Of a stretch of 64,000 nucleotides of DNA, positions 246 to 55,267 are shown piece by piece. The stretch comes from Coriobacteriia bacterium (GTDB lineage: Bacteria > Actinomycetota > Coriobacteriia > Anaerosomatales > Kmv31): NCBI GenBank assembly GCA_014859305.1, contig JACUUM010000001.1, positions 25,409 through 89,408 of the forward strand, given 5' to 3'. Positions within the stretch are counted from its first letter, which is position 1. Every line of letters starts with the position of its first letter. Made by a program: the position numbers and the translations under genes. The notes beneath the pieces were generated by a model, which worked only from the letters and a program-made list of their open reading frames with translations, did no database searches and was not told the origin of the DNA.

Positions 246-306
246 TTGACGACGAATACCCCGGCCAGTATCTTGACCGGAGAGATAAGGATACCCATTG
301 GGGTAT
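246..306 (+). promoter_or_regulatory. Candidate sigma70-type promoter plus downstream palindrome (possible operator) for the FAD/Fe-S oxidoreductase gene
   Basis: TTGACG (246-251), 17 nt spacer, TATCTT (269-274). This is followed by a perfect inverted repeat ATACCC-N4-GGGTAT (291-306). The site lies in the divergent gap between the HAD gene and the next CDS. Confidence 0.3.
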
Positions 307-372
307 GGTGTGCGACCTCGGGCGGACCGGACGCCGGAAGCGGTGTGCGGAGCCGGCCCGGCCGGAGGAGGG

Positions 373-6007: not shown

Positions 6008-6153
6008 CGGTCCCTTCCTCGAGCGCCGTGCGCACGATGATACCGGAGGGGCGGTTGGCGGTTCAGGTGGCTCGCGGGGCTGCCGATACCTAGGTAGCGG
6101 CCGTGAAGGCCGACGACCGCGGGATTCGCAGCGAGGAGGCCCGAGTGGCGGAG

Positions 6154-9704: not shown

Positions 9705-9713
9705 GAGGCGGGG

Positions 9714-11276
9714 ATGGTACACAAGGCACCCGCGCTCCCTCACGGCCACGGGGAAGTGCTCACCAGCCCGGCCTTCGCGGAGTGGGCCGAGCTGATGCGG
9801 CGCAACGCGCGGGCGGCGCGGGCGTGGCGGTTCGACGTCTTCGGCGCCGACGCGCTCGCCCTGCGCCGGGACGCGCGCCGCGACGCCCTCGCCGCGGCAG
9901 AGGCGTTCTCCGCGCGCGTGGGCGTTCCCCTGGCCGTGCCCTCTGAACCGGCGCACATAGTAGCCACCGGGCACCAGCCCGAGTTCTACCACCCGGGCGT
10001 GTGGATCAAGGTCTTCCTGCTGCAGCGGCTCGCCGACGAGACCGGTGCCGCGGCGCTGGACATGGTGGTCGACTCGGACGCGTTCGATGCGCTCGGTGTC
10101 ACCGCTCCGGTCGTACGGGGGAAGGTGGAGAGACGCCGGGAGCACTTGGCGGTGGGCGGACGAGACGTCTGCTACGCGTGCGCGGGCCCGCCGTCGGCCG
10201 AGGAGCTTGAGGCGTTCTGCTCCGCCGGCCTCAGGATGCTCTCGACGCTTCCCAACTGGGCGGTGGCGCGTCACTTCGGCGACTTCTGCGATGCCCTGCG
10301 CGAGTCGCTCCCAGGCGCGGTCAACCTCGCGGAACTGGTCACGTTCGCTCGCCGGCGGTACGAGGCGCAGGCGGGCACCGACTACCTGGAACTGCCCGTG
10401 ACGGCGCAGTCGGCGACCGCGCCGTTCCTGCGCTTCGTCGCACATGTGGCCACCGAGGCGGAACGGTTCGCGACCGGCTACAACGCGGAGCTCGCCTCGT
10501 TCCGCGCCGCGACGAAGAGCCGCTCCGAGGCACAGCCCTTCCCCGACCTGCAGATCGGCGGCGGTTTCGTGGAGCTGCCGTTGTGGCACCTGGAGGGAGG
10601 GCGGCGCGACGCCGTGCGGGTCCGCGTCGGCGAAGAGACGGAGCTCCTCGCCGACGGAGGCGTCCTCGCGCGCCTTCCTTCGCGTCCCGGCGGCGACGCG
10701 CTCGCCCGCGTGTCCGGTGTGCTGGCACCCAAGGCCGCCGCGCTCACGATGTTCACCCGCATGTTCGTGGCCGACGTGTTCGTGCACGGGGTCGGCGGCG
10801 GACGGTACGACCGGGTGACCGACGGCGTCATCCGGCGCTTCTTCGGCGTGGATCCGCCGCGCTACACGGTGGCATCGATGACGATGTACCTCCCCTTGGG
10901 CGGCCACATCGTGGGCGAGGGGGAGGTGGCGGCGGCCGAGCAGCGGCTCCGCCGCCTGCGGCACAACCCCGACCAGCTGCTGGGGGAGGCGGAGTTCGAG
11001 TCGGCCGAGGAGCGGCGCACGGCCGAGGCGCTGGCCGAGGAGAAGAGGGCGCTGGTGGAGTCGATCCGAGCGCCCGGCGCCGACAAGAAGACCCTGGGCG
11101 GGAGGATCCGCGAGGTGAACGAGGAGCTCGCCGCTATGCTGGCGCCGATGGCCGAGGAGCTGCGAGCGGAGCGCGACCGGCTGGCTGCGATGCGGGAGGC
11201 GACGGAGGTCGTCACGGACCGCACGTACCCCTTCTGCTTCTGGAGCCCGTTCGAGATCGCGGACAAGGCGAGGTGA
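9714..11276 (+). CDS. Uncharacterised 520-aa protein; distant BshC-like (putative cysteine ligase) candidate with C-terminal coiled coil
   Basis: ATG at 9714, 10 nt after the deacetylase stop, with RBS AGGAGG. Segment TGHQPEFYHPGVWIK resembles the BshC GGQQ(x)9K motif. HGVGGGRYDRVTDGVIRRFFGVDPP has the same spacing as B. subtilis BshC AGPGEINYWGELKQAFAVMGFKMPP (sequence recalled from memory). The C-terminal ~110 aa are charged and heptad-like. The CDS call is solid; the function call is weak. Confidence 0.5.
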   Translation: MVHKAPALPHGHGEVLTSPAFAEWAELMRRNARAARAWRFDVFGADALALRRDARRDALAAAEAFSARVGVPLAVPSEPAHIVATGHQPEFYHPGVWIKVFLLQRLADETGAAALDMVVDSDAFDALGVTAPVVRGKVERRREHLAVGGRDVCYACAGPPSAEELEAFCSAGLRMLSTLPNWAVARHFGDFCDALRESLPGAVNLAELVTFARRRYEAQAGTDYLELPVTAQSATAPFLRFVAHVATEAERFATGYNAELASFRAATKSRSEAQPFPDLQIGGGFVELPLWHLEGGRRDAVRVRVGEETELLADGGVLARLPSRPGGDALARVSGVLAPKAAALTMFTRMFVADVFVHGVGGGRYDRVTDGVIRRFFGVDPPRYTVASMTMYLPLGGHIVGEGEVAAAEQRLRRLRHNPDQLLGEAEFESAEERRTAEALAEEKRALVESIRAPGADKKTLGGRIREVNEELAAMLAPMAEELRAERDRLAAMREATEVVTDRTYPFCFWSPFEIADKAR

Positions 11277-19299: not shown

Positions 19300-19385
19300 G
19301 GGGTAAGAGGTGCGGCTGAAGGAGTCCGGGCCGGGATATCGGATCGTAGTCGAAACGCGTCCCCCCGCTCCCGTATCACCTCGAG

Positions 19386-20696
19386 GTGATGAATTTGGCG
19401 TATGTACGTTTCCGGGGTGGAGTGCACCCTCCGGAGCACAAAGAGGCCACCGAAGGACGGGTCGTGGTCCGTGCGCCCGTACCCGAGCGGATCGTCGTGC
19501 CGATGAGCCAGCACCTCGGCGCTCCGAACGAGCCCGTCGTGGCGAAGGGCGACCGGGTCCGAAGGGGCGAGGTGGTCGGCAGTGTAGAGGCGATGGTGAG
19601 CGCGCCGGTGCACTCGCCCGTGGACGGCCAGGTGGCCGGCGTCGTCGAGGTCCCGCTCGCACCCGGTCTGCGGTCGCGCGCCGTCGAGATCGTCCCCGAT
19701 GCCGAGCAGGACCTGGACTCCTTCGTGACGCTGGAGCGATCCGAGGACGTCAAGGCCGTTGTGCGGGCGGCGGGCATCGTCGGCATGGGCGGGGCGGCCT
19801 TCCCGTCCGCCGTGAAGCTGCAGCCCCCTCAGGACATGCGGATCAGCACCGTGATCCTGAACGGCTGCGAGTGCGAGCCGTTCCTGACGGCCGACCACCG
19901 CCTCATGCTCGAGCAGCCGGAGCGCGTCGTGCGCGGGGGGCGGCTGATCCGCGACGCGGTGGGCGCCTCGCGTGTCGTCATAGGGGTCGAGGATAACAAG
20001 ATGGATGCGGTGGAGGCCCTTCGTGCCGTCGCGGGCGACGACGTCGAGGTCGCGGCGCTCCCGACCCGCTACCCCCAAGGGGCGGAGAAGCAGCTGATCT
20101 GGACGCTGCTGGGCAAGGAGGTCCCCAAGGGCAAGCTCCCTGCCGCCACCGGCGCGCTGGTGCACAACGTCGGCACCGCCGCCGCCGTGGCCGACGCCGT
20201 CGACCGGGGGAAGCCGCTCATCGAGCGGATCGTCACCGTCACCGGTGCAGTGGCGCGGCCGGGCAACTACCTGACGCTGCTGGGCACGCCCGTGTCGGCG
20301 CTGATAGAGGCCGCGGGCGGCCTCGTCGAGCCGGTCGGCCGCGTGGTCTCCGGCGGGCCGATGACCGGCTTCGCCCTCGGGGTGCTCGACGTCCCTGTCA
20401 CCAAAGGCACCTCCGGGATCACGGTGCTGCGAGCGGACCAGGTACCGCCCGAGGTCTACGGCGACCAGCCCTGCATCAGGTGCGGGCGCTGCGCGGAGGC
20501 CTGCCCGATATTCCTCCGGCCGTACGCGATCGGGATCTTCGCGACCGGCGGTGACTGGTCCAGGGCCGAGGAGGCCCACGTACTGGACTGCATCGAGTGC
20601 GGGTGCTGCGCGTACGCGTGCCCGACGAGCCGGCCGCTGGTGCAGCTGCTCCGTCGCGCGAAGCAGGCGGCGATGCTGAAAGGAGCGAAGCAGTGA
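19386..20696 (+). CDS. rnfC: Rnf electron-transport complex subunit C
   Basis: 436 aa. It has an NADH/FMN-binding-like region (GIVGMGGAAFP), the SLBB-like middle region and two ferredoxin clusters (CIRCGRCAEACP, CIECGCCAYACP). GTG at 19386 or ATG at 19389. Confidence 0.9.
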   Translation: MMNLAYVRFRGGVHPPEHKEATEGRVVVRAPVPERIVVPMSQHLGAPNEPVVAKGDRVRRGEVVGSVEAMVSAPVHSPVDGQVAGVVEVPLAPGLRSRAVEIVPDAEQDLDSFVTLERSEDVKAVVRAAGIVGMGGAAFPSAVKLQPPQDMRISTVILNGCECEPFLTADHRLMLEQPERVVRGGRLIRDAVGASRVVIGVEDNKMDAVEALRAVAGDDVEVAALPTRYPQGAEKQLIWTLLGKEVPKGKLPAATGALVHNVGTAAAVADAVDRGKPLIERIVTVTGAVARPGNYLTLLGTPVSALIEAAGGLVEPVGRVVSGGPMTGFALGVLDVPVTKGTSGITVLRADQVPPEVYGDQPCIRCGRCAEACPIFLRPYAIGIFATGGDWSRAEEAHVLDCIECGCCAYACPTSRPLVQLLRRAKQAAMLKGAKQ

Positions 20697-21697
20697 GCGA
20701 GGCAGGGGGTGTTCGCCGGCTCAAGGCCGGGTCCTCCCCGCACATCGCGGCGTCCTTGACCGCACGGGGCATCATGGCGTGGGTGCTGGCGGCTTTGGCG
20801 CCGTCGCTGCTGTGGGCACTGTGGAACATGGGCACCCCGGCGCTGCTCGTGGCCGCGGGCAGCCTCACCGGCGCGGTGGGCACCGAGTTCGCATGGAACG
20901 CGATCGCCAAGAAGCGTCACACGCTCGGCGACCTGACCGCTGTGCTCACGGGCGTACTGCTGGCGATGACGCTGCCCCCTTACACACCGTGGTGGATGGC
21001 GTTCGCCGGAGGTGTCGTCGCCATCGGGCTCGGCAAGATGCTCTTCGGCGGGCTGGGCTGGAACCTGTTCAACCCGGCGCTCGTCGGCCGCGCGATGATA
21101 GTCATCTCGTGGGCCGGCGTGCTGGCTCTGCAGCCCAACGGGGGGTGGTTCCGCACGCTGGGGATGGAGGGCGTCGGCGAGCTGGACGCCGTGAGCGGCG
21201 CCACGCCGCTGGGACTGGCCGCGGCTGACCGGGCGGCGGCCGGAGGGTACGGGTTCCAGACGTCCTCGCTCTACGGGGACCTGCTCTTCCGGAATCTCTC
21301 GGGGTCCATCGGCGAGATCTCCGCCGCTCTGCTCATCGCCGGGGGCTTGGTGCTGGTCGCGGTCCGCATCATCGACTGGCGGATCCCCGCCGGCTACGTC
21401 GGGACGATGGCGGTGCTGTCCGCGGCCTTCGGGGGCGACCCCGTCTTCCATATGCTCGCCGGCGGGCTCATGATCGGCGCCTTCTACATGGCGACCGACT
21501 ACGTCTCCTCCCCGATGTCGCCCAACGCGCGGCTGCTCTTCGGAGTGGGCTGCGGCGTCTTCAACGCGTTGGGGCGCTTCTTCGGCTCGATGCCGGAGGC
21601 CACGACCTTTGCGATCCTGTTCATGAACGGTCTGGCGCCGATGCTGGACCGGGCCTTCGTGCCGAGGACCTACGGGTGGGTGAGCCGCAGTGAGTGA
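20693..21697 (+). CDS. rnfD: Rnf complex subunit D (NqrB/RnfD family)
   Basis: The GTG at 20693 overlaps the rnfC stop (GTGA). The protein is polytopic and membrane-embedded. The flavinylation motif SGATPL is present (LDAVSGATPLG). Confidence 0.9.
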   Translation: MSEAGGVRRLKAGSSPHIAASLTARGIMAWVLAALAPSLLWALWNMGTPALLVAAGSLTGAVGTEFAWNAIAKKRHTLGDLTAVLTGVLLAMTLPPYTPWWMAFAGGVVAIGLGKMLFGGLGWNLFNPALVGRAMIVISWAGVLALQPNGGWFRTLGMEGVGELDAVSGATPLGLAAADRAAAGGYGFQTSSLYGDLLFRNLSGSIGEISAALLIAGGLVLVAVRIIDWRIPAGYVGTMAVLSAAFGGDPVFHMLAGGLMIGAFYMATDYVSSPMSPNARLLFGVGCGVFNALGRFFGSMPEATTFAILFMNGLAPMLDRAFVPRTYGWVSRSE

Positions 21698-22280
21698 CAA
21701 TCATCCTCTTAGGCTGGTCCTCTCCGTCGTGGTCACGTGCGTGGTCGCGTCGGGTGCTCTCGGAGCGACGTATCTGGCGACGAGGGAGCGGATCCTGGAC
21801 CAGGACCGGCAGGCCGAGGCGCGGTCGCTGTCGGCGGCCTATCAGGGCGCCGAGAGCTTCGACCCCGTGCTCGATGAGGCGCTCCTCACGCGGGCGCAGG
21901 AGGCCGCGGGCGAGCCACGGGTGCTCGGGATCTTCCGCGCGGTGACCGCGGAGGAGGAGGCGGGGTGGGCGCTGAAGGTGGCACCTCGTGGCTACGGCGG
22001 CAGGATACAGATGGTCGTGGCCGTGGATAGGAATGGGAAAGTCCTCGGCGTCAGCATACTCACGATGAACGAGACTCCGGGGCTGGGGACGCAGGTCGGG
22101 CAGGCCCGGTTCCTGGAGCAGTTCTCGGCGTGGTCCGCCGAGACGATCGCCGACGACGCCAAGACGCTGGATGCGATCAGCGGTGCGACGAAGTCGTCGC
22201 GCGGTGTCGCCAACGGCGTGGCGGCCGCGGGACGCGTGTTCGACGAGGTGCTGAGAGGGGAGGAGGTGGCGAGCCGATGA
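21690..22280 (+). CDS. rnfG: Rnf complex subunit G (FMN-binding)
   Basis: It has an N-terminal TM helix, an FMN_bind-type domain (ETPGLG) and the covalent-FMN motif DAISGATKSS (Thr167 by my count). It overlaps the rnfD stop. Confidence 0.9.
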   Translation: MSDNHPLRLVLSVVVTCVVASGALGATYLATRERILDQDRQAEARSLSAAYQGAESFDPVLDEALLTRAQEAAGEPRVLGIFRAVTAEEEAGWALKVAPRGYGGRIQMVVAVDRNGKVLGVSILTMNETPGLGTQVGQARFLEQFSAWSAETIADDAKTLDAISGATKSSRGVANGVAAAGRVFDEVLRGEEVASR

Positions 22281-22939
22281 GCGAGTGGCTGCGTGTGTTC
22301 CGTTCGGGACTGGTCCTGGAGAACCCGCTCACGCGTCTGATGATAGGGCTGTGTGCCACCCTGGCGGTGTCGAACCTCATCCAGGGAGCCTTCTTCATGG
22401 CCCTGGCGGTGATCTTCGTGCTCGTGATGAGCAACGTGATCGTCTCGTCGATCCGCACTCTGGTGCCCACCACGGTCCGCATCCCGGTCTTCATCGTGGT
22501 CATCGCCACGTTCGTGACCATCGTCGACCTGACCATGAAGGCGTTCCTTCCGAGCATCTACGCGATCCTCGGGATATGGATCCCGCTCATCGTCGTGAAC
22601 TGCCTCATCCTCGGGCGCTCCGAGGCGTTCGCCTACCAGAACGGCGTGACGCTCTCCGTCGCCGACGGACTCGGCAAGGGGCTCGGTTTCGCGATGGTGA
22701 TCGTGACCCTGGGATTCGTGCGCGAGCTCTTCGGCTCCGGGCACCTCGACTTCCTCGGCGCCACGCTTCTCCGGATGCCGGGGTTCTACCAGCCTCCCAG
22801 CATCCTCATCCTGTTCCCCGGCGCGTTCATCCTGTTCGGCTTCCTGATGGGCGCGATCAACGCGTTCGAGTCCTGGAACAAGGGCAGGCGCATACGGGCA
22901 CACGTCGACGAGGGGTTCGGCGAGGAGGCAGCGGCATGA
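22277..22939 (+). CDS. rnfE: Rnf complex subunit E
   Basis: The ATG at 22277 overlaps the rnfG stop (ATGA). The sequence ENPLTRLMIGLCATLAVSN... is typical of RnfE/NqrD. Confidence 0.9.
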   Translation: MSEWLRVFRSGLVLENPLTRLMIGLCATLAVSNLIQGAFFMALAVIFVLVMSNVIVSSIRTLVPTTVRIPVFIVVIATFVTIVDLTMKAFLPSIYAILGIWIPLIVVNCLILGRSEAFAYQNGVTLSVADGLGKGLGFAMVIVTLGFVRELFGSGHLDFLGATLLRMPGFYQPPSILILFPGAFILFGFLMGAINAFESWNKGRRIRAHVDEGFGEEAAA

Positions 22940-23559
22940 GCACGCTGGCGCAGTACGGGCTGCTCTTCATCGGCGCCGCGTTCGTCAGCAACATCCTGCT
23001 GACGAGGTTCATCGGCCTGTGCCCCTTCTTCGGCGTCTCGTCGAGCTACGAGACATCCATCGGCATGAGCCTCGCTGTGGTCTTCGTGATGACGATGGCG
23101 TCGGCGGCGACGTGGGTGTTCTGGCGCTTCCTGCTCGAGCCGCTCGGCGTCGGGGATTTCCTGTACATCCCCGCGTTCATCCTGGTGATCGCCGGGCTCG
23201 TGCAGTTCGTGGAGATGTTCCTGCGCAAGTCGAGCCCCCCGTTGTACACGGCGATGGGGATCTTCCTGCCGCTGATCACCACCAACTGCGCGGTGCTGGC
23301 CACCGCCACGGAGTCGGTGAAGGTGGAGTTCTTCAAGCTCGGGGTGGACTTTTACGTGGGCGATTTCCTTCAGGCGATCGTCTACACGCTCGGCAGCGCG
23401 GTGGGCTTCGGCTTCGCGCTGCTGACGTTCGCGGCGATCCGGGACCGGCTGGAACTCGCTCCTGCGCCGGCCGCGCTCAAGGGCGCGCCGATGGCGTTCA
23501 TAACCGCGGGTTTGCTCTCGCTGGCCTACATCGGGCTGGCGGGCTGGTTCGGGCTGTAG
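22936..23559 (+). CDS. rnfA: Rnf complex subunit A
   Basis: The ATG at 22936 overlaps the rnfE stop. The sequence FVSNILLTRFIGLCPFFGVSS... is typical of RnfA/NqrE. Confidence 0.9.
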   Translation: MSTLAQYGLLFIGAAFVSNILLTRFIGLCPFFGVSSSYETSIGMSLAVVFVMTMASAATWVFWRFLLEPLGVGDFLYIPAFILVIAGLVQFVEMFLRKSSPPLYTAMGIFLPLITTNCAVLATATESVKVEFFKLGVDFYVGDFLQAIVYTLGSAVGFGFALLTFAAIRDRLELAPAPAALKGAPMAFITAGLLSLAYIGLAGWFGL

Positions 23560-23574
23560 GGAAGGAGGGTCTCC

Positions 23575-24474
23575 TTGGACGCGACACTGCTGCTCAAAGC
23601 GATCGGGGCCCTCGCCCTCATGGGGCTGGTCATCGGCGCGGCGCTCGCCGTGGCCTCTCGCGCCTTCCACGTGGAGGTCGACGAGCGCGTCGCCCGCGTC
23701 AACACGATGCTGCCGGGGGCGAACTGCGGGGCATGCGGCAACCCGTCGTGCTTCCAGGTGGCCGTGGGCATGGTGGAGGGCACGCTGCCGCCGACCGCGT
23801 GCACGGCAGGCGGACCGTCGGTGGCCGAGGCGGTCTGCGAGACGCTCGGGCTGGAGAAGGCTACGATGGCCGCGGTCGTCTCGGCCCGGCACTGCGGCGG
23901 AGGGACCCGGGCGGAGCGGGCGTTCGACTACTCGGGTGTCCTGTCGTGCAACGCCGTGCAGAGGGTCGGGGGCGGGGACCTCGCATGCGCCTGGGGGTGC
24001 CTCGGGTACGGGGACTGCGTGTCGGCGTGCCCGTTCGACGCGATCCACCTCGACGAGCGCCGCCTGCCCGTGATCGACCTGCGCAAGTGCACCGGGTGCG
24101 GGCTGTGCGTCAAGGAGTGCCCGCGCGACCGGTTCAAGCTGCTCGAGATGATTCCCGACGATGCGGCGGTCGTGGTGCGCTGCAGCGCGCACGACAAGCC
24201 GGCGCTGCGAAAGAAGACGTGCCCCGTGTGCTGTATCGCCTGCAAGAAGTGCGAGAAGGCGTGCGAGTCCGATGCCATACACGTGGAGGACGGCAACGCC
24301 GTCATCGACTACGCCAAGTGCACGGCCTGCGGCGTCTGCGTGGAGGTGTGCCCGCAGGACTGCATCGACTTCACCGGGGCGGGGAGCAGGCTCCCCACGA
24401 GCGCCTTCGACGGCAAGGCGGGCGACGCCGCGGTCAAGCCCGCGTCACGTCCCAAGGAGGCTGCCGAGGCCTGA
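23575..24474 (+). CDS. rnfB: Rnf complex subunit B, long form with extra ferredoxin domains
   Basis: TTG start follows GGAAGGAGGG. It has an N-terminal TM helix and the CGACGNPSC cluster. Several CxxCxxCxxxCP motifs follow (CGDCVSACP, CTGCGLCVKECP, CIACKKCEKAC, CTACGVCVEVCP). Confidence 0.9.
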   Translation: MDATLLLKAIGALALMGLVIGAALAVASRAFHVEVDERVARVNTMLPGANCGACGNPSCFQVAVGMVEGTLPPTACTAGGPSVAEAVCETLGLEKATMAAVVSARHCGGGTRAERAFDYSGVLSCNAVQRVGGGDLACAWGCLGYGDCVSACPFDAIHLDERRLPVIDLRKCTGCGLCVKECPRDRFKLLEMIPDDAAVVVRCSAHDKPALRKKTCPVCCIACKKCEKACESDAIHVEDGNAVIDYAKCTACGVCVEVCPQDCIDFTGAGSRLPTSAFDGKAGDAAVKPASRPKEAAEA

Positions 24475-24818
24475 TGACCCGCGGTGACCGTATCGTCGTG
24501 GCCGTCGTCGGCGCGCTGGCACTGGCCGCGGTGCCGCTGTCTTCCCGCGCGATCGCCGGTCCCGAGGGGGGCGTGACCGTGCGCTCCCCGCAGGGAGTGA
24601 GCCGCTTCGCCGAGGATGCGCGGTTGAAGGTCGCCGGCTCGCGAGGGGAGCTCGTCGTGGAGGTCGCCGGCGGGCGCGCGCGCGTGCTGGAGGCCGACTG
24701 CCCCGACCAGGTCTGCGTGCGAAGCGGGTGGTCCTCGGCGGGTCGCCCCGTGGTGTGCGCGCCGAACCGCGTCGTCATCGAGAGCGCGGGAGGGTCGCTG
24801 GATGCCGTCTCGCGCTGA
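24474..24818 (+). CDS. NusG domain II-containing small membrane-anchored protein (PF07009-like)
   Basis: The ATG at 24474 overlaps the rnfB stop (TGATG). 114 aa with an N-terminal TM helix. The hallmark EADCPDQVCVRSGW....PVVCAPNRVVIE is present. Confidence 0.6.
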   Translation: MTRGDRIVVAVVGALALAAVPLSSRAIAGPEGGVTVRSPQGVSRFAEDARLKVAGSRGELVVEVAGGRARVLEADCPDQVCVRSGWSSAGRPVVCAPNRVVIESAGGSLDAVSR

Positions 24819-25383
24819 CCTCACCGTTCAGACGGCGGCCCTCGTGGCGCTCGCCGCCGTGCTGGGCTACGCGGAGGCCGTCGCATTGCCGCCGTTGCCG
24901 GTGCCGGGTGTCCGCCTCGGGCTCGGCAACGTCGCCGTGGTGGTCGCGCTCGCGCTGCTCGGAGCGCGCCCGGCGCTGGTCGTGAGCCTGGGCCGTGTGC
25001 TGGCCGTGGGGCTGGCGACAGGCTCCCTCGGGGGACCGGCCTCGGCCATGGCGCTTGCCGGCGCCGGTGCGGCGTGGCTGGTCATGGCCGGTCTCGCCTC
25101 GGCGGGCCGGACGTTCAGCGCCGTGGGCTGGTCGGTCGCCGGCGCGGCCGCCCACGTGCTCGCCCAACTCGCGGCGGCGTGCGTCCTGACCGGGTCGCCG
25201 GCCCCGCTCTCGCTCGCCCCGCTCTCCCTGGCGCTCGCCCTCGCGGCGGGCCTGGCGACCGGGTCGATGGCCGCCGCGGCCCTCTCTCGCGCTCCCCGCG
25301 TCCTCTCCCGCCCCCTCGCCGAAGGCGCACCGGGGACGGGGGAGGGGGTGCCGCGTGGCCCCGCGGCCGCTCGGGAGCTCTGA
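24802..25383 (+). CDS. Gx-transporter family membrane protein (heptaprenyl diphosphate synthase component I-like, PF07456-like)
   Basis: 193 aa, very hydrophobic. The motif AAVLGYAEAVALPPLPVPGVRLGLGNVAVVVAL matches the family signature as I recall it. It overlaps the preceding gene by 17 nt. Confidence 0.6.
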   Translation: MPSRADLTVQTAALVALAAVLGYAEAVALPPLPVPGVRLGLGNVAVVVALALLGARPALVVSLGRVLAVGLATGSLGGPASAMALAGAGAAWLVMAGLASAGRTFSAVGWSVAGAAAHVLAQLAAACVLTGSPAPLSLAPLSLALALAAGLATGSMAAAALSRAPRVLSRPLAEGAPGTGEGVPRGPAAAREL

Positions 25384-42032: not shown

Positions 42033-42624
42033 GATCGAGCAGCTCATCGCCGAGGCCCAGCGGGTGCTCCCGCGGCACCTCGGTTCTCGCGGCGCCGCGC
42101 ACTCGCGGGCGGTGGCGGAGACCGCGGCGTCGCTGGCGCGCGAGTACGGAGCGGACGAGCGCCGCGCGTTCCTCGGCGGGCTGCTGCACGACTGGGCGAG
42201 GGACGTCCCGGCGGAGGAGCTCCTGAAGGAGGCGGCGCGGCGGGGCATCCCCGTCACGGAGGTGGACCGCGAGGTCCCCTACCTGCTGCATGCCGCCGTC
42301 GGCGCCGCTCAGGCGCGTGATGCGCTGGGCGGCCTGCCCGAGGACGTGTTCCGCGCCGTCGAGCGGCACACGCTCGCGGCGCCGGGGATGACGGCACTGG
42401 AAGCCATCGTGTTCGTCGCGGACATGCTGGAGCCCGGGCGGGACTACCCCGCGGCCGAGGAGCTGCGGTCCCTCGCCGGGTCGGCCCCGCTGCCAGTGCT
42501 GTTCGTGGCGGCGTACGCGCGGTCGCTGACGCACGTGATCGAGACGCGGCGCCATCTGCACCCGGCCTCCGTGCCGGCATGGAACGCCGCGATCGCCGCC
42601 GCTGAGGGGCTGAAGACCCCGTGA
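42022..42624 (+). CDS. yqeK: HD-domain bis(5'-nucleosyl)-tetraphosphatase, YqeK family
   Basis: The HD motifs HSRAVAETA...GLLHDWAR are present. It sits in the canonical position after nadD. ATG at 42022 overlaps the nadD end by 11 nt. Confidence 0.8.
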   Translation: MSSEIEQLIAEAQRVLPRHLGSRGAAHSRAVAETAASLAREYGADERRAFLGGLLHDWARDVPAEELLKEAARRGIPVTEVDREVPYLLHAAVGAAQARDALGGLPEDVFRAVERHTLAAPGMTALEAIVFVADMLEPGRDYPAAEELRSLAGSAPLPVLFVAAYARSLTHVIETRRHLHPASVPAWNAAIAAAEGLKTP

Positions 42625-43772
42625 GCGGCTCCGAGCGGCCCGTCGCTTCCACGGAGCAGGCGGCGGAGCGCCTGCGGCGGGCGAAGGTGACGGTGGCCCC
42701 GGAGGTCCCGAGCGGGTACCGCTCGTCGCGGCGAGGCTCGAAAGCGGCGAAGAGCGCCAAGCGCGCCCGCAGGGCCTTCCGCGTGCGCGAGGTCGTGACC
42801 GGCACGGTCGACTGGGTGCACAGGGGCGCATGGGTCGGCGTGAGGGTCGCGGTCGTGGCGGCCGCGGGCGCCGCCGCCGTCGTGCTGGCGCTGTTCCTTC
42901 TCGCTCTGGGCATCAACGCGACGGCCCGATGGGTCGCGGTGGTACGTGCCGGCGACGGCGCCGGGAGCGCCCTGTCCGAGAGCGCGCGCGAGAACGTGCT
43001 CGTCGTCGCCGTCGAGGGAGACCGCGCCCGCGGCTTCCTGGCGCTGCGCGCGGCCGAGAAGGAGAAGCGCGTCTTCGGGCTGGCCATACCCGACGGGGCG
43101 TTCATGGAGGTCCCGGGCCAGGGGTTCGAGCGCATCGGGGACAGCTATCACGCGGGGCCCGAGGTCTCGATGGCGGCCGTCTCGAACTACCTCTCGGTCC
43201 CGTTCGAGCGCTACCTCGTCGTCGATGCCTCCGTCTACGAGCAGGTGCTGCAGAAGCAGAGCGTCGCGGGTCTGCTCGACGCGTCGATCAGGACGGACCT
43301 CACCCCCGAGGAGGCGGACCGGTTCCGGAGGATCGCGGACGTGACACCGACCGAGGACGTGCTGATCGTGCCGCTGCCCGTGAAGCCGATCACGCTCGGG
43401 GACGAGACGTACTTCGAGCCTCGGCGCGCGGAGGTGGCGGAGTTGATCGAGTCCTGGTGGGGTGTGAAGCTCACCGGGGACGACGGGCCGGCGCGCGTGA
43501 TCGTGTACAACGGCTCGGGTGTGCCCGGTATCGCGGGCCACGCCGCGCGGCAGCTGATCCGCGGCGGCTACAGGGTCGTCGACACCAAGAACGCGGACCG
43601 GTTCGGCTACGCCGAGACGCTCATCATCGTGCAGCACCCGGGCGAGGTGGATCCGGAGGGCGTGCGCAAGACGCTCGGCGTGGGGAAGGTGGTCTCGCAG
43701 CCGTCCGATCAGCGCATCGCGGACGTGATCGTGATCATCGGGAAAGACTATGCGCCGCCGCAGGACGGGTAG
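42621..43772 (+). CDS. LytR-CpsA-Psr (LCP)-like protein with C-terminal LytR_C domain
   Basis: It has an N-terminal TM helix and an LCP-like core (VLVVAVEGDRARGFLALR...GLAIPDGAFMEVPGQG). The C-terminal VIVYNGSGVPGIAGHAARQL..GGYRVVDTKNADRFGY is typical of LytR_C. Confidence 0.7.
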   Translation: MSGSERPVASTEQAAERLRRAKVTVAPEVPSGYRSSRRGSKAAKSAKRARRAFRVREVVTGTVDWVHRGAWVGVRVAVVAAAGAAAVVLALFLLALGINATARWVAVVRAGDGAGSALSESARENVLVVAVEGDRARGFLALRAAEKEKRVFGLAIPDGAFMEVPGQGFERIGDSYHAGPEVSMAAVSNYLSVPFERYLVVDASVYEQVLQKQSVAGLLDASIRTDLTPEEADRFRRIADVTPTEDVLIVPLPVKPITLGDETYFEPRRAEVAELIESWWGVKLTGDDGPARVIVYNGSGVPGIAGHAARQLIRGGYRVVDTKNADRFGYAETLIIVQHPGEVDPEGVRKTLGVGKVVSQPSDQRIADVIVIIGKDYAPPQDG

Positions 43773-45387: not shown

Positions 45388-45463
45388 GGGGCCATAGCTC
45401 AGCTGGGAGAGCGCATGGCTGGCAGCCATGAGGTCAGGGGTTCGATCCCCCTTGGCTCCACCA
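45388..45463 (+). tRNA. tRNA-Ala (anticodon GGC), CCA encoded
   Basis: Manual cloverleaf: acceptor GGGGCCA/TGGCTCC with the G3:U70 Ala identity pair, D arm GCTC-AGCTGGGA-GAGC, anticodon arm CATGG-CTGGCAG-CCATG (anticodon GGC), T arm AGGGG-TTCGATC-CCCCT, discriminator A, then CCA. Confidence 0.9.
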
Positions 45464-45475
45464 GACGATCGCAGA

Positions 45476-45503
45476 GCCCGCCGGGGGACCGGCGGGCTTC
45501 TTC
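45476..45503 (+). terminator. Intrinsic terminator after tRNA-Ala
   Basis: 9-bp GC stem GCCCGCCGG / CCGGCGGGC with loop GGGA, followed by TTCTTC. Confidence 0.55.
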
Positions 45504-45648
45504 GTGGAGGCGGCGGTGCCCGGACGCGGGGCGCGAGGGTGTCAATGGGCAGGTCAAGCTGGCCTTTTCCAGTTTCAGGTGGTATAAAGGTCAATGAAGA
45601 CGCGTGCCGTACGGCCTCATGCTGGGGCGCTCCGGAGGGAGCACCCGA

Positions 45649-48600
45649 GTGTCTCTTGATTCATGCCATCCGCTTCGAGTAGCGGCCCGTGGCCTGCCGT
45701 GGGTCGCGTTCGTGACGCTCGCGCTCGCGCTGTCGGCGCCGGCGGACGCGAGGGCGGCCGAGGCCCACGGACCCTACAGCTTCCTCTCGTCCAAGTGCGT
45801 CCTGTGTCACGCTCCTCACGTCGCTGCATCCCCCGACAACCTCTTCGTAGCGTCCACTCCCAAGACGCTGTGCTACTCGTGCCACGACGGCACAGGGTCC
45901 GTGTACGACACCAGGTCGGCGTTCGGCGAGACGGTCGAAGGCTCCTCGGACAAGACGTCGCGCCACCCCGTACCCGAGGGGGCCCTGCAGTGCAGGGACT
46001 GCCACAGTGCACATGCCGATCCCGCCTCGCGCGCGCGGCTGCTCGCCGCCGGAGAATCCCACGCCTCCACCGGCACGGCGGTGTGCGGCTCCTGCCACGG
46101 CAGCGGCTCGGGGCTGCCCGGCGGCGATCTCACGTCGGGCCTCGCGGGGACGGGGCACGCCACACTCGGGTCGGTACCCTCGGCCGCCGACATCGCCTGC
46201 GTCGCATGCCACGAGCCCCACGGCTCTGCGCGGCCGCAGCTCCTTCGGGAGGTCGTCATGCGGTCGAACGGCACGACGCGCACGGCCGCCGACGACAAGG
46301 CGTTGTGCCTGGCCTGTCACGAGGTGCGACAGGGGGACTACCCCGGCGAGTCCGTGGCGTCTGCCGGCAAGCACTCGACGACGCTCTCGTCGACCAAGGC
46401 GGCGGTCTCGTATCCCGGTTCAGGCCGGCCGCCCGGCGACTGCATGAACTGCCACGAGCCCCACGGGACCACGGGCAACGGCGCGTATGCGAGGAAGCCC
46501 GGCTCGGAGCTGTGCGGAGAGTGCCACGATGCGGCGGGAGCGGTCTATCCGTCGGGCTACTCCTACCGGGGCGCCGGGGCGATGTCCGTCTCGGGCCATG
46601 TGAGCGTGGACAGCGGGCTCGGGTACGCCTCGCTGTCCTGCGACAGCGAGGGCTTCGCGGCGTGGGAGAGCGTCGCGCAGCCCACGCCCTCCGCGCCCGG
46701 CCAGCCCATCGCGCTCGCGCGACTCGGCGGCATGCGCTCGATGGACTCCTCCGTCACCGTGACGAGCCTGGCGTCGGTGACCGGAGAGTACGACTACCAG
46801 ATGTACCGCTTCCGGGTGGAGCAGCCGCGGGCGGACGTCCGCGGGCTCGCCGCCGTGTGGCGGGGGTTCGGCGAGGAGAAGGCCGGCAACCCGGTCGTCG
46901 TGTCCGTGTGGGACAACAGCACGTCGTCGTGGCATCAGTTCGCCAACCGGCAGATGGTGGACCCGACCACGTCGCGGCTGGAGCTCGAGGTGGCGAAGCA
47001 CCTGGACGCGAACGGCGACGTGTACCTGCTCGCCGGCGCCCGGAACTCCCAGGACACGGACCTGGTCAGCGGGCCGACGCTGCTGCGTCTGAGCGATACC
47101 TCGGTGCGAATCGACTGGACCACCTCCGGGCCGAGCGACAGCTGGGTCGACTACGGAGCGACCTCCGCGTACGGGACCACGGTGGGGACGTCGACGCGCG
47201 CGACCTCGCATAGCGTGACGCTCTCCGGGCTGTCCGAGCGCACCTACCACTACCGGGTCCGATCCGCAAGCGGGGACGGGGACAGTTACGTCTCGCCCGA
47301 CTTCACGCTCGGCCTTCCCGGTCCCGTCCTCACGCCGGTGCCCGACCAGGAGATAATCGCTCCGGTCACGGTGGCGTTCGCCTGGACGGTGCCGTCGGAG
47401 GAGTATCGCCCCTTCCGCTACCGCGTGCAGGTGAGGGACTGGAGCGGTGCGGAGGTGTGGAGCACCTGGACGGACGACGTCACGAGCGCCTCGACGGTCC
47501 TCGGCGTCGGATCCTATCGATGGCGCGTCGAGGCCGTCGACAAGGACGAGTTCTCCTACGGCTGGTCGAACGAGGACATCTTCTACCTCTACGAGTCCGG
47601 CTCGTGCCCCTTCCTGTTCACCTGGGACGGGGAGCGATTCGGCTTTGAGGCAGACCTGTACGGCGCCGGCAAGCTCGGGGTGGTCACCAAGGACGGCTAC
47701 CTGAAGCCGGAGCCCAACGACCACTACGTGCTGCGGCACGAGCCGGCTCTGCGCGACGGCCGCTACGAGTTGCGGCTGGTGGAGGAACGCGCCGAGATCG
47801 ACTACCTGGACGAGCTGCGGCTCTACGCGGTGGACGCGCCGGCCGGGCGGCGGGTGATGGCCGAGAAGCCGCAAGCCGGGGAGGCGCCCTTCCCCGGGCT
47901 GGAGAAGGTGCTGCACACGATCGCGGAGGACGCTCCCGCACCCCGATCGGTCGTGCACGTGAACACGGGTCGCGACGTGACCGCCGAGATCGCATCGGAC
48001 GACGACGTCTGCGTGGTGCTCAACGAGGACCGCAACGTGGACTTCGACTACCAGACCCTCGAGCTCGACCTGGGTGACGTATCCGCCGAGGATCACGTGC
48101 GGATCGCCATGGACGCGGTGAGCATGTTCCCCAACACGGCCGAGGGGAAGAAGCGCTCCGCCTCCTTCGGTGCGCGCACGAAGCTCGAGGTCCAGGATGC
48201 CGATGGGAACTGGGTGCTCGCGGATCCAGCGAAGGCCACCTTGCCCAAGGCACCGGAGTTCTCGCGCCCCTACGTCTTCGACATCTCCGACATCTGGGTC
48301 TCGGATAGCCGGAAGGTGCGCTTCACGTTCCTGTTCAAGACGTACGTGGACTGGATCGCGGTGGACACGAGCGCGGACGTCCCGGTGAAGATCACCGAGC
48401 TGCCGATGGCCTCCGCGGGGCTGCGGCTGCGCGGTCTGGACCCCCGCGACGGCGAGGAGGAGCGATACGAGTACGTCTACGGGGAGCCGACCGGGCGCAC
48501 CGCCTACCTTCCCGGCGCCTACACGCGCTTCGGCGATGTGCGGGAGCTCCTGGAGCGCACGGACGACATGTTCGTCATCTACGGCGGGGGCGACGAGATC

Positions 48601-51600
48601 GCGCTGTCGTTCGAGCCGATCGCGCCGGCCGCGGAGGGCGAGGTCCGCTACTTCCTCGCGTACACCAACGGCTACTACAAGAACACGAAGATTCGCGGCT
48701 CGCTGGCGGTGGAGCCGCTTCCGTTCGCCGAGATGAGCAACTACCCGTACGGCGCAGACGAGTCCTACCCCGACGACGAAGCGCACCGGGAGTACCGCTC
48801 GGAGTGGAACACGCGTGTCGTCGGAGAGGACGAGGTGCTCGCGACGCCTTCGGCCGCCGAGGACGACGGATCTCCCCCCCGACTCCTGGCGGCGGTGGGC
48901 TCGTTCCTGGAGAGGATCTGGGACGGGCTCGTGTCCCTGTTCGCGCCGTCGGATCCACGGGTCGCGAGCGGGGGAGCCGGGACGGGCGACTCCGGCGAGG
49001 AGGTTCACCGCTCGCTCAACACCGACTACGTGGGGCTGGAGATCAGCTTCCCGTCGGCCAACGTCTCCGGATCCTGTCTCGCCTGCCACGCGGTCCACGG
49101 ACAGGAAGAGGGAGGGCAGCCGTTGCGGGGTTCCACCTGGGGGCGCGACGCACGGGTCTGCACCGCGGACGGGACCGGCTGCCACGCCGAGGCGACGTCC
49201 TCGGTGTCGGGGGTCGACATCCTCGGCCGCTTCACCGCCAGCGGGGACGCCAGAGCGCATCACGACGTGATGCCTTGGGAGCAGGAACGGACGGGCGCGC
49301 GCATAGAGTGCTCGAGTTGCCACAACCCGCACTTGGATCGCAGGGATGTCCAGGTCGTCGACCCCTACGACAAGAGCGTCGCGGTCCCGCCGACGTTCTC
49401 TCGGTTCATCGACGGTTCCAACGACGTGTACGTGCTCGTGGGCGCGGATCACGACGGCAACCCGCCGGTCGTATCGAATCGACGGACCGACGTCTCCACC
49501 GGATGGCGGACACCGACGGTAAGGTGGTCGACGAACGAGCCGGCGGACTCCTGGGTGGACTACGGGACCGACACGACGTACGGTTCGGGGACCGTGGGAA
49601 GCGGCACGCTGACCACCTCGCACGCGGTGCTGATGCCCACGCTCACGGACGGCGTCACCTGGTACATGAGGGTCCGGACGGTCGATGCCGTGGGGAACGA
49701 GGCCGTCTCCGAGTTCACGTACTTCCCGGTGGAGCCCCCGCCCGCGCCTACGCTCGTTCCCGTCGGGGACAAGAGGGTGAACGGCTTCTGGGGGCCCTCG
49801 ACGGTGGACGTCACGTTCTCATGGTCGGCCGTCACCTGTCCGGACGGGGATCCGGTCGAGTACGTGTTCGAGCTGCGGCGCAACGGCGTCGTGTGGACGA
49901 CCGTCACGACAGCGGAGACGACGCACACCGTGACAGGTCTCACGGGAGGGGATGACTACCAGCCGACCGTGCTCTACACCTGGCAGGTGCGCTCGCGTGA
50001 CACCCTGCACACCGACGCGGTCTCCCCGTGGGCTCAGTCCAGCTTCTACGTGACGGACGTCGAACCGTCCGGCTCGTGCCCGTTCCTGTTCACGTGGGAC
50101 GGGGAGGACCATGCTTTCGAAGCCGACCTGTACGGGGCGGGCAAGCTCGCGGCCAAGACGAAGGACGGGTACCTGAGGCCCGAGCCGCGTGACGCGTACG
50201 TCCTGCGGAGCGAGCCGGCTCTGCGCGACGGCCTGTACGACCTGCGGCTGGTGGAGGAGCGCGCCGAGGTCGACTACCTCGACGAGCTGAAGCTGTACGC
50301 AGTGGACGCGCCCGCCGACCGGCTCGTCATCGCTGAGAAGCCCCAAGCCGGGGGTAAGGCGTACGGGCCGCTGGACGAGGTGGTGCAGACGATCGCAGCC
50401 GACGCGCCGCCCCCGGTCAGCGCGGTACACGTACAGGCGGGGCTCGACGTGCTCGAGCTCATCGCGAAGGACGACGACGAGTGCGTGGTGCTCAACGAGG
50501 ACCGCAACGTCGACTTCGACTACCAGACCCTCGAACTCGACCTGGGCGACCTCGCCGGGGCCGAGAGCGTGCGCATCGCCATGGACGCCGTGAGCATGTT
50601 CCCGGACACGCCCGAAGGGACCGCTCGCTCCGCGTCGTTCGGCGCGCGGACCAAGCTCGAGGTGCAGGACGCCGAGGGGAACTGGGTGACGGCGGAGCCG
50701 TCCAAGGCCACCTTGCCCAAGGCGCCGGAGTTCTCGAGGCCGTACGTCTTCGACGTCTCCGACATCTGGGTCTCGGATAGCCGGAAGGTGCGCTTCACGT
50801 TCCTGTTCAAGACGTACGTGGACTGGATCGCGGTGGACACGAGCGAAGACGTCCCCGTGGCGATGATCGAGCTGCCGTTGGTCTCGGCGGAGCTGCGCGT
50901 CCACGGCATCGACGATAAGAGCGGCCGCGACGAGCGCTACGAGTACGTCTACGGTGAGGGCAACGGGGTGACCCTCTACATGCCCGGTGCCTACACCCGC
51001 TTGGGGGACGTCCGCGAACTCCTCGACGCCTGTGACGACAAGTTCGTGATCTACGGTGGAGGAGACGAGCTCGCTCTCTCTTTCGAGCCCGCAGCCGAGC
51101 CCGGGAGCGGCACCCGGCGCTCGTTCGTGATGTACACGAACGGCTACTACAAGGACAACAAGGTCGACGTCCCCCATGCGGTCGAGCCGCTACCCTTCGC
51201 CGCCATGAGCAACTTCCCGTACGGCGAGGACGAACACTACCCGGACGACGAGGAGCACCTCGCATACCTCGCCGAGTGGAACACGCGGGTCGTCGATGAG
51301 GACGACGCCATGGCAGGGTCCACGAGCTCGGCGTCGGCGGTCGGAGCCGTTGGGGAGGGCAGGGACGCCCCCTCGCTGTGGCAGCTGGTCTTCGGCCGGA
51401 CGTGGGGCGAGCTCATGGACGACGTCGCGGCTCCGGCGACCGAGGAGACGCTCGCCGATGACGATGCTGTGCTGCCGCCGTCCGAGACGGAGACACCGGC
51501 CGCGGAGACATCCGTTGCCGGGGCTGGCGAGGGCGAGTGGCCGGATACCGTCGAGCACTATTCCCTCAACACGGACCGCCTCGTGCTGGCGGGCGTGCGC

Positions 51601-52569
51601 ACGAGCGCCTCGCAGCTCGTCATAACGCCGGTGCAGGGATGGGAGAGCGAGGGGTCCGCGACGGCGCCGACGCCCTCGGCGCCCGGCTCCGAGGTGGCCG
51701 AAGGCGTCTTGACACGGGTCGGCGTGGCGGACGAGCAGTACTGGCGCACCGACCTGGCGTCCAGTGACCGGCGCTGGAACTGGCAGGTCGCGCGCTTCAG
51801 GATCACGCCGGAGGAGATCGGGGCTCTCAAGGACTTCCGTGTGCTGTGGACCGGGTACGGGGAGCCGACGCCGGGGTATGCGACGAAGGTCGCGATCTGG
51901 GACCCCGCGACCACGTCGTGGGTCTGGCTGCACACGCGGGATGCTCTGGGCGCGACGGCGAACCTCGCGTACTTCGAAGGCGGTACGCCGGATTCGTTCT
52001 GCCTGGCGTGCCATGACGGCTCCACCCCCGAGGGCGTCACCTTGCCGAGCGGTGTGACGAACATCGGGGCGAACTGGGGAGCTACGAGCAAGGCGGACTT
52101 TCATGGCGCGCGCGCGGGGACGGGCTACTCGGGCAGCACGGGCGGCATGGCTCCGCCGTACCGCCGCGGCATGGCCGCGTTGCCGTGCGTGACCTGTCAC
52201 GACCCGCACGGGAGCGGCAACCTCTTCCACATAGCGGACAACGTGAACGAACGGACCGGGATCGTCGCCGTAAGCGGCAACGGGATGAAGGATCTGTGCT
52301 ACGCGTGCCACACCGGCACGGTGGACCAGTGGCATAAGGAGTGCCTGGACTGCCACAACGGCGGGTGGGGGCACGGAGACGTGTACGTGGACTCTCCCGA
52401 GACGTACGGCGGGCAGAACTACCCCAACGCCAACAGCGACTGCAGGCTCTGCCACAACCACGGCAGCAAGTCGAACGTGCACAGTGACGGTGGCAGAGGC
52501 GTCGACGAGCGGGAGCAGATCCCCTCCTGGTGCGATCACTACTGCCACCACTGGGACACCACGTTCTGA
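45649..52569 (+). CDS. Giant secreted multihaem c-type cytochrome (~2300 aa) with FN3-like domains and two copies of an unassigned ~410-aa module
   Basis: Track ORF 45604..52569. I prefer the GTG at 45649, 9 nt after GGAGGG. The signal peptide reads [30 protein letters not shown]. It has 15 canonical CxxCH motifs, many in the CxxCH.PH(G) form typical of doubled-CXXCH / cytochrome c3-like domains. There are also one Cx6CH and one Cx3CH variant. Confidence 0.85.
45796..46527 (+). other. N-terminal haem cluster: 8 CxxCH motifs within ~245 aa
   Basis: The motifs are CVLCH, CYSCH, CRDCH, CGSCH, CVACH, CLACH, CMNCH and CGECH, at residues 65-308 of the track ORF numbering. Confidence 0.85.
47596..48828 (+). 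repeat. Copy 1 of the unassigned ~410-aa module (starts [14 protein letters not shown]...)
   Basis: Residues ~665-1075. By eye it is roughly 70% identical in protein sequence to copy 2. Confidence 0.8.
49075..49323 (+). other. Central haem cluster: 2 CxxCH motifs plus one Cx6CH variant
   Basis: The motifs are CLACH (1158), CTADGTGCH (1186-1194) and CSSCH (1236). Confidence 0.75.
50062..51303 (+). repeat. Copy 2 of the unassigned ~410-aa module (starts [15 protein letters not shown]...)
   Basis: Residues ~1487-1900. It is offset 2472 nt (824 codons) from copy 1. It contains a 90-nt block (50756-50845) identical to 48284-48373. Confidence 0.8.
52000..52548 (+). other. C-terminal haem cluster: 5 CxxCH motifs plus one Cx3CH variant
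   Basis: The motifs are CLACH, CVTCH, CYACH, CLDCH, CRLCH and CDHYCH, at residues 2133-2315. Confidence 0.85.

Positions 52570-52690: not shown

Positions 52691-55267
<2,577 letters not shown>

Follow-up and report, generated by a model that had tools for sequence, protein, structure and literature searches.

Passage of electrons through the thick, insulating wall of a monoderm bacterium is known from only a few Firmicutes cytochromes. Two such proteins, OcwA from Thermincola potens (9 haems, PDB 6I5B) and OmhA from Carboxydothermus ferrireducens (11 haems, PDB 6QVM), are secreted multihaem cytochromes proposed to act at the cell surface. In anaerobic methanotrophic (ANME) archaea, large multihaem cytochromes are fused to S-layer domains, which would let electrons cross a non-conductive envelope. 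The surface reductases of Firmicutes are secreted, loosely attached multihaem cytochromes such as OmhA, which is bound loosely to cells and mineral (PMC7829351). Here, we describe a gene for a giant multihaem cytochrome c found in a 64,000-nucleotide stretch of DNA (the window) from a Coriobacteriia bacterium (assembly GCA_014859305.1, contig JACUUM010000001.1). The gene occupies positions 45649-52569 of the window, and encodes a protein of 2306 residues that, like OcwA and OmhA, is without sortase or S-layer homology (SLH) anchors. On balance, we consider it likely that the product is a secreted giant c-type cytochrome that serves as an envelope-retained redox node for extracellular electron transfer in a monoderm, Coriobacteriia/Anaerosomatales-like bacterium. 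A surface multihaem cytochrome of a monoderm is a kind already known. What is new is the architecture of three haem blocks and two arms, its conservation in Anaerosomatales-like Coriobacteriia, and the recurrent fusion to cytochromes of a very common module without a curated family, which we name U.

The window protein departs from the described systems mostly in how it is built. OcwA and OmhA are single haem domains of 526 and 681 residues, whereas the window protein has three haem blocks (H8, H3 and H6), two arms each made of two fibronectin type III-like (FN3) domains followed by U, and two copies of a beta-rich element (bX). OcwA, OmhA and block H8 have in common a CxxCHxPHG...LCxxCH style of motif, but the two structures give only local matches of about 40 residues to H8 (E = 0.0039 for OcwA and 0.0011 for OmhA), and homology does not extend over the haem domain. 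H8 also has the paired-CXXCH, wire-type haem arrangement of the MtrA/DmsE and GSU2203 families, and its best PDB sequence match is MtrA (6R2Q_A, E = 1e-5), over a short motif-centred stretch. Those families have ten haems whereas H8 has eight, and their proteins act inside an outer-membrane porin, which a monoderm is without. The models for both score far below their cut-offs (56.5 bits against 192 for TIGR03508, the DmsE/MtrA decahaem model, and 32.4 bits against 325 for NF041028, the GSU2203 decahaem model), and the protein is not an ordinary member of a known cytochrome family, a possibility that the preliminary description of this DNA had raised. The filament cytochromes OmcS, OmcE and OmcZ are absent from PDB sequence searches with H8, H3 and H6. 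With the ANME cytochromes the protein has in common the idea of a very large cytochrome joined to non-redox envelope domains; those proteins belong to another domain of life, have other non-redox modules, and to our knowledge their haems are not split in three by duplicated arms.

The gene and its haem blocks

The preliminary description, made from the letters alone, reported one giant open reading frame (ORF) of about 2300 residues with a signal peptide, 15 CxxCH motifs in three clusters of 8, 2 and 5 together with one Cx6CH and one Cx3CH, repeated modules of about 410 residues, a beta element repeated at the first and last haem clusters, and neither LPXTG nor a second transmembrane helix. 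All of this stands, with the particulars given below. The reading frame is unbroken on the plus strand from 45604/45649 to 52569, and remains open for 6.9 kb. The GTG start at 45649 yields a product identical to NCBI entry P0001, which is recorded as [quoted passage not shown] (MAG, metagenome-assembled genome). Residue numbers in this text count from that GTG; the earlier numbering counts from 45604 and is larger by 15. The GC fraction at third codon positions (GC3) is 0.90, as in the adjacent genes, the overall GC content equals that of the surroundings, and the protein is acidic overall. The order of modules is SP-H8-bX-[FN3-FN3-U]-H3-[FN3-FN3-U]-bX-H6, where SP is the signal peptide and the brackets mark the arms. 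The features, all on the plus strand, are:

45649..52569, +, whole gene of the giant multihaem cytochrome c, 2306 residues and stop codon
45634..45641, +, Shine-Dalgarno-like GGAGGGAG, 7 nt before the GTG start at 45649
45649..45756, +, signal peptide, residues 1-36, the sole hydrophobic segment of the protein, with an N-terminal pattern that homologues share
45757..46638, +, H8 octahaem block, residues 37-330, 8 CxxCH and 9 conserved additional His
46648..46989, +, bX1, beta-rich, residues 334-447, starting with a conserved W-E-S...PTPSAPG
47035..47598, +, arm 1, two FN3-like domains, residues 463-650, with a weak fn3 match and Pur_ac_phosph_N in homologues
47599..48843, +, arm 1, U1, residues 651-1065, all-beta, multi-jelly-roll, without a curated family
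48844..49023, +, linker 1, residues 1066-1125, with a conserved amphipathic stretch and an HRSLNTD motif
49024..49368, +, H3 central block, residues 1126-1240, 2 CxxCH and a conserved Cx6-7CH
49459..50073, +, arm 2, two FN3-like domains, residues 1271-1475, from self-comparison, Pur_ac_phosph_N in homologues and module mapping
50074..51315, +, arm 2, U2, residues 1476-1889, 71% identical to U1
51316..51633, +, linker 2, residues 1890-1995, acidic and of low complexity, with much Ala, Thr, Ser, Gly and Glu
51634..51978, +, bX2, second copy of the beta element, residues 1996-2110, beta strands in the AlphaFold2 model at a predicted local distance difference test score (pLDDT) of 70-90
51979..52566, +, H6 C-terminal block, residues 2111-2306, 5 CxxCH, a variable terminal Cys pair and His

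The 15 CxxCH motifs lie at residues 50-289 (eight), at 1143 and 1221 (two), and at 2118-2265 (five), and the extra motifs are Cx6CH (residue 1171) and Cx3CH (residue 2295). The pattern CxxCHxxH(G) is seen in seven motifs. In 2000 shuffles of the protein, CxxCH appears by chance 0.02 times on average and at most once, and none of the other ORFs of at least 80 residues, whatever their frame in the window, contains two or more. Several haem families score above their Pfam cut-offs: Paired_CXXCH_1 (114.6 against 20.6), Cytochrome_C7 (45.7 against 24.8), Cytochrom_c3_2 (30.4 against 25) and Mtrc-MtrF_II-IV (48.3 against 30); TIGR01905 scores 69.4 against a cut-off of 25.2. In the block alignments, the cysteines of the canonical CxxCH motifs are conserved together with enough additional His for bis-His ligation. 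Counting the motifs, a total of 16-17 haems is probable.

Each block has its own pattern. Bis-His ligation of H8 is possible because nine conserved additional His accompany its eight motifs. In H3, 17 homologues show no change in either canonical motif or in five other His, and they keep the extended Cx6-7CH; because all 17 keep it, H3 is predicted to bind three haems, probably one more than its canonical motifs. H6 has invariant Cys and His in its alignment (A2) and a Cytochrome_C7 match at residues 2177-2237. The fourth H6 motif, CLDCH in the window protein, is C-W-C-H (CxCH) in five homologues (P0002, P0005, P0007, P0008 and P0018; A2 columns 315-320). Going by these alignments, the CxCH of H6 and the Cx6-7CH of H3 are unusual predicted spacings for haem attachment that are kept by selection. 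Neither the H3 nor the H6 sequence has a match in the PDB. In one homologue, a short form of 1284 residues with a single arm (P0018), haems 1-5 of H8 are fused directly to haems 2-3 of H3, which shows, at the level of predicted haem motifs, that the H8 and H3 parts are able to form one continuous haem domain.

A signal-type N-terminal hydrophobic segment with AxA sites points to export. The likely cleavage site is ARA/AE, immediately ahead of a conserved mature start (N)PHGxY. The 2306 residues include no second transmembrane helix or C-terminal hydrophobic segment, an LPXTG-like motif ([LIV]Px[TSA]G) is absent from the whole protein, and Pfam gives no SLH or S-layer family match, so the protein is not a wall protein anchored by sortase or SLH domains. 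Two homologues (P0006 and P0015) start with a transmembrane-like hydrophobic segment followed by an extension of 350-400 residues, Pro-rich in places, before the haem region. At the other end, most family members finish in ...[RKT][TA]F-COOH (TTF, RTF, KTF, RAF, QTF); in the window protein, the last residues, 2302-2306 (52552-52566), carry this conserved ...TF carboxy-terminus. The conserved terminal Phe recalls sorting or assembly signals, although it fits no such signal known to us in monoderms.

Arms, beta-rich elements and relatives

The arm FN3-FN3-U is an internal duplication. In self-comparison, residues 435-1065 and 1235-1889 are 57% identical, and in the DNA the two copies are 76-81% identical at a spacing of 2472 nt. 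For the two FN3-like pairs of the preliminary description, the fn3 match in the window protein itself is 15.9 bits, below the Pfam cut-off of 25; in homologues, Pur_ac_phosph_N (an FN3-like family) scores 37.5 and 71.6 at the equivalent positions against a cut-off of 30. After each U there is a linker, 55-121 residues long among homologues, with an amphipathic stretch and the motif xSLNTD. From its composition, linker 2 is probably flexible.

The U module (about 415 residues) has no sequence match in Pfam, NCBIfam or the PDB. AlphaFold2, using an alignment of 35 sequences, models it as all-beta with pLDDT 91.9 and a predicted template modelling score of 0.90. Foldseek gives no match to the whole module, only to sub-domains, which resemble galactose-binding-like jelly rolls with probabilities up to 0.98 (CBM32, discoidin/neuropilin b1, the ephrin-receptor ligand-binding domain and allantoicase). 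U begins with Ser-Cys-Pro, which hardly varies, and several of its acidic residues are invariant; the acidic positions of note are E72, D77, D141, D328-D329 and D338 in U numbering. No catalytic signature is seen in U, and neither a His nor a Cys-His pair is invariant. The modules had been described as of unknown family, which holds in that no curated model exists; they are not rare, however. Among 1.84 billion representative proteins, U occurs in 2303 clusters (at 50% identity) at E <= 1e-30, mostly in proteins without haem (the matches listed are P0117-P0254). Its chief context is the C-terminus of TPR/FG-GAP/UnbV_ASPIC (CRTAC1-like) proteins of 1100-1300 residues from Planctomycetota, Terriglobales and others, where U is 27-35% identical. 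Those proteins have no haem motifs, whereas the window protein has no FG-GAP or UnbV_ASPIC domain and does not belong with the CRTAC1-like proteins. A small protein of FN3 and U is another context.

Further multihaem cytochromes, with 8-16 CxxCH, end in a U module at 43-67% identity. These carry the same unit of FN3-like domain and U, and come from MAGs of diderms: Desulfuromonadaceae (GWC2_58_13), Geobacteraceae (SKOL), Thermodesulfobacteriota, Nitrospirae and Gammaproteobacteria (Glo_5). They differ from the window protein in that U is single and C-terminal, bX is not detected, and the haem parts are detectably related to H8, H3 and H6 at the motif level only. In one such locus (L015), further cytochromes and an NHL-repeat protein adjoin the gene of the U-bearing cytochrome. 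With thousands of clusters, no curated model and repeated fusion to cytochromes, U merits the definition of a family.

The two bX copies (334-447 and 1996-2110) are 30% identical in self-comparison (E = 4e-12), with beta strands predicted, and have a common opening motif, W-[EQ]-S...PTPSAPG (alignment A5). The bX profile has no match in the PDB even at E <= 10, and in Pfam only stray matches below threshold, the best being GH114_assoc (E = 0.016). BLAST does not detect bX in eleven other U-containing proteins. A Bacillota fragment (P0083) is a cytochrome with a LamG jelly roll and a bX-like segment.

A protein search finds 17 homologues of the window protein, 30-48% identical and mostly of 2060-2570 residues, in Coriobacteriia, Anaerosomatales and "Actinobacteria" MAGs. 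When the eleven modules are mapped on these 17, their order is kept in almost all. Taken together, the protein search, a GTDB-wide scan and the search of representative proteins put the family at about 25 clusters (50% identity), almost all of them from MAGs of Coriobacteriia, Anaerosomatales or other Actinobacteria. The GTDB scan was made with U and two peptide patterns, and also picks up proteins that are not cytochromes. The haem pattern of all the roughly 25 clusters is 8+2+5, or a 7+2+5 variant with an N-terminal transmembrane-like segment and a long extension. Database labels of members are "hypothetical", "cytochrome c3 family protein" and "fibronectin type III domain-containing protein", and in the open-access literature we find no description of the giant family or of U. 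The preliminary description did not recognise the domain combination as a described family and called the architecture unusual. The first point is upheld: neither U nor bX matches Pfam, NCBIfam or the PDB, the decahaem models score far too low, and no curated family fits. As to the second, the architecture is undescribed but the protein is not a one-off.

Two relatives call for comment. P0006 (L007 4493-11518, Anaerosomatales bacterium Yes46-06) has two U modules identical in sequence and is missing the C-terminal haem block, and is probably a collapsed or mis-joined repeat in its assembly. In L002, the giant is followed downstream by lepA, hemN and then the gene (21040-25029) of a 1329-residue cytochrome whose haem clusters have an F5_F8_type_C (discoidin) domain between them. 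Cytochromes with F5_F8_type_C or LamG between haem blocks occur more generally in related MAGs of Actinobacteria and Bacillota. Discoidin, LamG and U all being found in this setting, beta-sandwich modules of binding type in extracellular cytochromes are therefore a recurring theme.

The genomic position of the giant is fixed within a housekeeping block, proB-proA-...-rsfS-eamA-tRNA-Ala-leuS-comEA-comEC-holA-rpsT-lepA-hemN. Across ten related loci (11 genomes with the window), the cytochrome gene occupies one of two slots, with neighbours that differ between the two. Slot A, between tRNA-Ala(GGC) and leuS, is used in the window, L003, L005, L008, L009 and L013; in L012, leuS lies directly downstream of the cytochrome, and the upstream genes and the tRNA are not detected. 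Slot B, between holA/rpsT and lepA, is used in L002, L007, L020 and L021. In L002, slot A is empty and tRNA-Ala directly precedes leuS (1133-1377). In the window, slot A is marked by:

45388..45463, +, tRNA-Ala(GGC), from ARAGORN, directly upstream of the gene, with a GC-rich hairpin after the tRNA

An 18-nt direct repeat, GG(G/A)GCGCGAGGGTGTCAA, 17/18 identical, lies just upstream of the gene (within 45388-45545) and inside the start of leuS (52756-52773), and is not seen in L003. The repeat may be the trace of an old insertion at the tRNA/leuS junction, or chance. We reject an origin as a mobile island: no integrase accompanies the cytochrome gene, its GC is that of the surroundings, and its position is common across species. 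Because its place in the housekeeping block is always one or the other of these two slots, the gene is neither an assembly chimera nor a recent island. ARAGORN also reports a permuted tmRNA in two loci (L005 7399-8159 and L013 6538-7295), where it overlaps tRNA-Ala and the beginning of the cytochrome gene; this tmRNA is almost certainly spurious.

Proposed function and its alternatives

The reading that we favour, that of a secreted redox node held in the envelope, draws on what is known of the lineage and on the Firmicutes surface cytochromes such as OmhA. Cultured Anaerosomatales have a Gram-positive wall type, 17-18 multihaem cytochromes and genes for cytochrome c biogenesis, and one cultured strain is an obligate Fe(III) reducer (PMC9686372). 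This wall type and the Coriobacteriia MAG record agree with the monoderm-type lineage assumed in the preliminary description. The protein would be exported by the Sec pathway and retained at the cell surface or in the wall. Its redox part would be H8, H3 and H6, of paired-CXXCH type with His/His ligation. The arms would be non-redox spacers and binding modules that hold the cytochrome to a wall or matrix polymer or to mineral; as attachment devices, they would explain the missing classical (sortase or SLH) anchor. The gap of about 850 residues between haem clusters was seen early on as an obstacle to a continuous haem wire, and the concern is valid. Non-haem stretches of that length are too long for electron tunnelling, so the three haem blocks must meet in space. 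Most likely the arms would loop out, with the long flexible linkers after each U (55-121 residues) returning the chain; otherwise, the blocks could be brought together by domain motion on the linkers, or by packing between molecules. Haem attachment, surface location, the direction of electron flow, the ligand of the arms and contact between the blocks are all parts of this account that we infer.

Several results weigh against a secreted redox node of this form. In the AlphaFold2 model of bX2 with H6 (16 sequences), pLDDT is 64 and falls below 60 in the haem part; the model being this poor, a comparison of the H6 fold is not meaningful, and Foldseek against the PDB returns only noise (E >= 1). 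Cytochrome c maturation genes, sought by the WWD motif of CcsA/CcmF, are found neither in the window nor at any retrieved homologue locus. The cytochrome gene does not cluster with other electron-transfer genes in the window, and both cultured Anaerosomatales, Parvivirga hydrogeniphila and Anaerosoma tenue, are absent from the results of the GTDB scan, which used two peptide patterns only. U is not specific to electron transfer, since most proteins that contain it have no haem. Finally, arm 2 of the homologues has between 2 and 6 FN3 domains, and one homologue is without U1. To judge from these sequences, such variation would suit rigid spacers at least as well as loops that return to a common haem core. 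A variable FN3 number argues for rigid struts, hence for packing between molecules or domain motion.

If the redox-node reading holds, the giant family would be a concrete and testable candidate, and surface cytochromes would then be known from two monoderm phyla. The Anaerosomatales (OPB41) are Actinobacteria with a wide distribution in the subsurface. Even with an ordinary function, the result is a clean domain map of a 2306-residue "hypothetical protein".

A bolder version of the same idea is that FN3-U is a dedicated docking module, binding wall or matrix polysaccharide or mineral, that marks self-anchoring extracellular cytochromes across phyla, of which the giant would be an extreme, pseudo-symmetric form with 16-17 haems and two docking arms. 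We put this forward tentatively, as an idea that more probably fails than holds. Were it true, a monoderm could hold a redox centre in place within its wall or outside it with no need of sortase, S-layer or porin; U would then be useful as a genomic sign of extracellular electron transfer, and would offer a means to engineer the attachment of cytochromes.

The variable FN3 count behaves in a strut-like way, and this brings up another arrangement, in which copies of the protein would assemble head-to-tail or staggered into a redox-active surface lattice or filament, like an S-layer. Haem nodes would then be made by H6, H8 and H3 of different chains, with the FN3-U arms as struts, and the protein would be a constitutive component of the envelope and not a dedicated terminal reductase. 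The pseudo-palindromic layout H8-bX-arm-H3-arm-bX-H6 would suit such an assembly, as would the conserved place of the gene in a housekeeping block, and the lack of a classical anchor in a family most of whose members conserve the ...TF end. The arms would still insulate the nodes from one another, however, with no conduction over distance; no S-layer or SLH family matches the protein, and the term S-layer occurs 0 times in the description of the cultured relatives (PMC9686372). We regard a lattice as unlikely.

The linkers after each U lend themselves to a different proposal, a tethered shuttle. There would be no fixed chain of haems, and flexible acidic linkers would allow H6, and perhaps H3 as well, to move back and forth between a donor on the inner side and an acceptor on the outer side. 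The linkers are long, acidic, of low complexity and variable in length, and electron transfer by domain motion is established in other multidomain redox enzymes. Yet only the stretches after each U look flexible, the other junctions being short, and the conserved amphipathic stretch and xSLNTD motif suggest that even the linkers are structured. We give a shuttle little credence.

About equally improbable, in our judgement, is that redox activity is secondary, and that the protein is mainly an adhesin binding polymers or surfaces, or an enzyme acting on extracellular polysaccharide, humic material or sulfur species, with U as the working domain and the haems supplying or removing electrons. U is found mostly in haem-free TPR/FG-GAP/UnbV_ASPIC proteins, it has several invariant acidic residues and its nearly invariant initial Ser-Cys-Pro, and its jelly-roll parts resemble carbohydrate-binding modules. 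On the other hand, it has neither a catalytic signature nor an invariant His or Cys-His pair, no enzyme family matches, and nothing else in the cytochrome family is conserved as strictly as the haem blocks.

That the gene is an artefact, whether a chimera of shorter genes joined in assembly or a pseudogene in decay, is effectively refuted: the internal duplication of 2.5 kb is of a kind that can mislead assemblers, and P0006, with its two identical U copies and lost C-terminus, is probably mis-assembled, but a chimera is excluded for the window because its two arm copies are only 76-81% identical in DNA, the frame is open over 6.9 kb with GC3 of 0.90, and the order of eleven modules recurs in independent NCBI, ENA, JGI and Logan assemblies.

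Other genes of the window

The genomic context cited in the preliminary description is partly as described. ComEA and ComEC are present in the window. The "LCP protein" (42606-43772) is not one by its domains: it has LytR_C (PF13399) only, with no LytR_cpsA_psr catalytic domain at E <= 0.01. The Rnf complex upstream, reported as complete, has RnfC, D, G, A and B at 19350-24474; RnfE is without confirmation by a domain match. Within the Rnf cluster, an ORF of 424 residues (22285-23559) has a single Rnf-Nqr match, confined to its C-terminal half (residues 227-420), and RnfE is probably encoded in another frame around 22130-22939. We discard a functional link between the Rnf cluster and the cytochrome: the cluster is 21 kb away, genes for cell shape and translation lie between, and it is absent from the conserved neighbourhood of the homologues.

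Three further genes are of note. An ORF of 523 residues at 9705-11276 has a coding-type GC3 of 0.91, and no Pfam match at E <= 1e-4. At 289-3468 there is a fusion of 1059 residues that joins FAD_binding_4 and FAD-oxidase_C to a 4Fe-4S dicluster and two CCG domains; its product resembles a dehydrogenase of the lactate/glycolate-oxidase type with an HdrD-like part attached. The gene at 6094-7818 encodes a T2SSE (type II/IV secretion) ATPase fused to an N-terminal response-regulator receiver domain; cultured Anaerosomatales relatives show pili-like appendages on ferrihydrite (PMC9686372).

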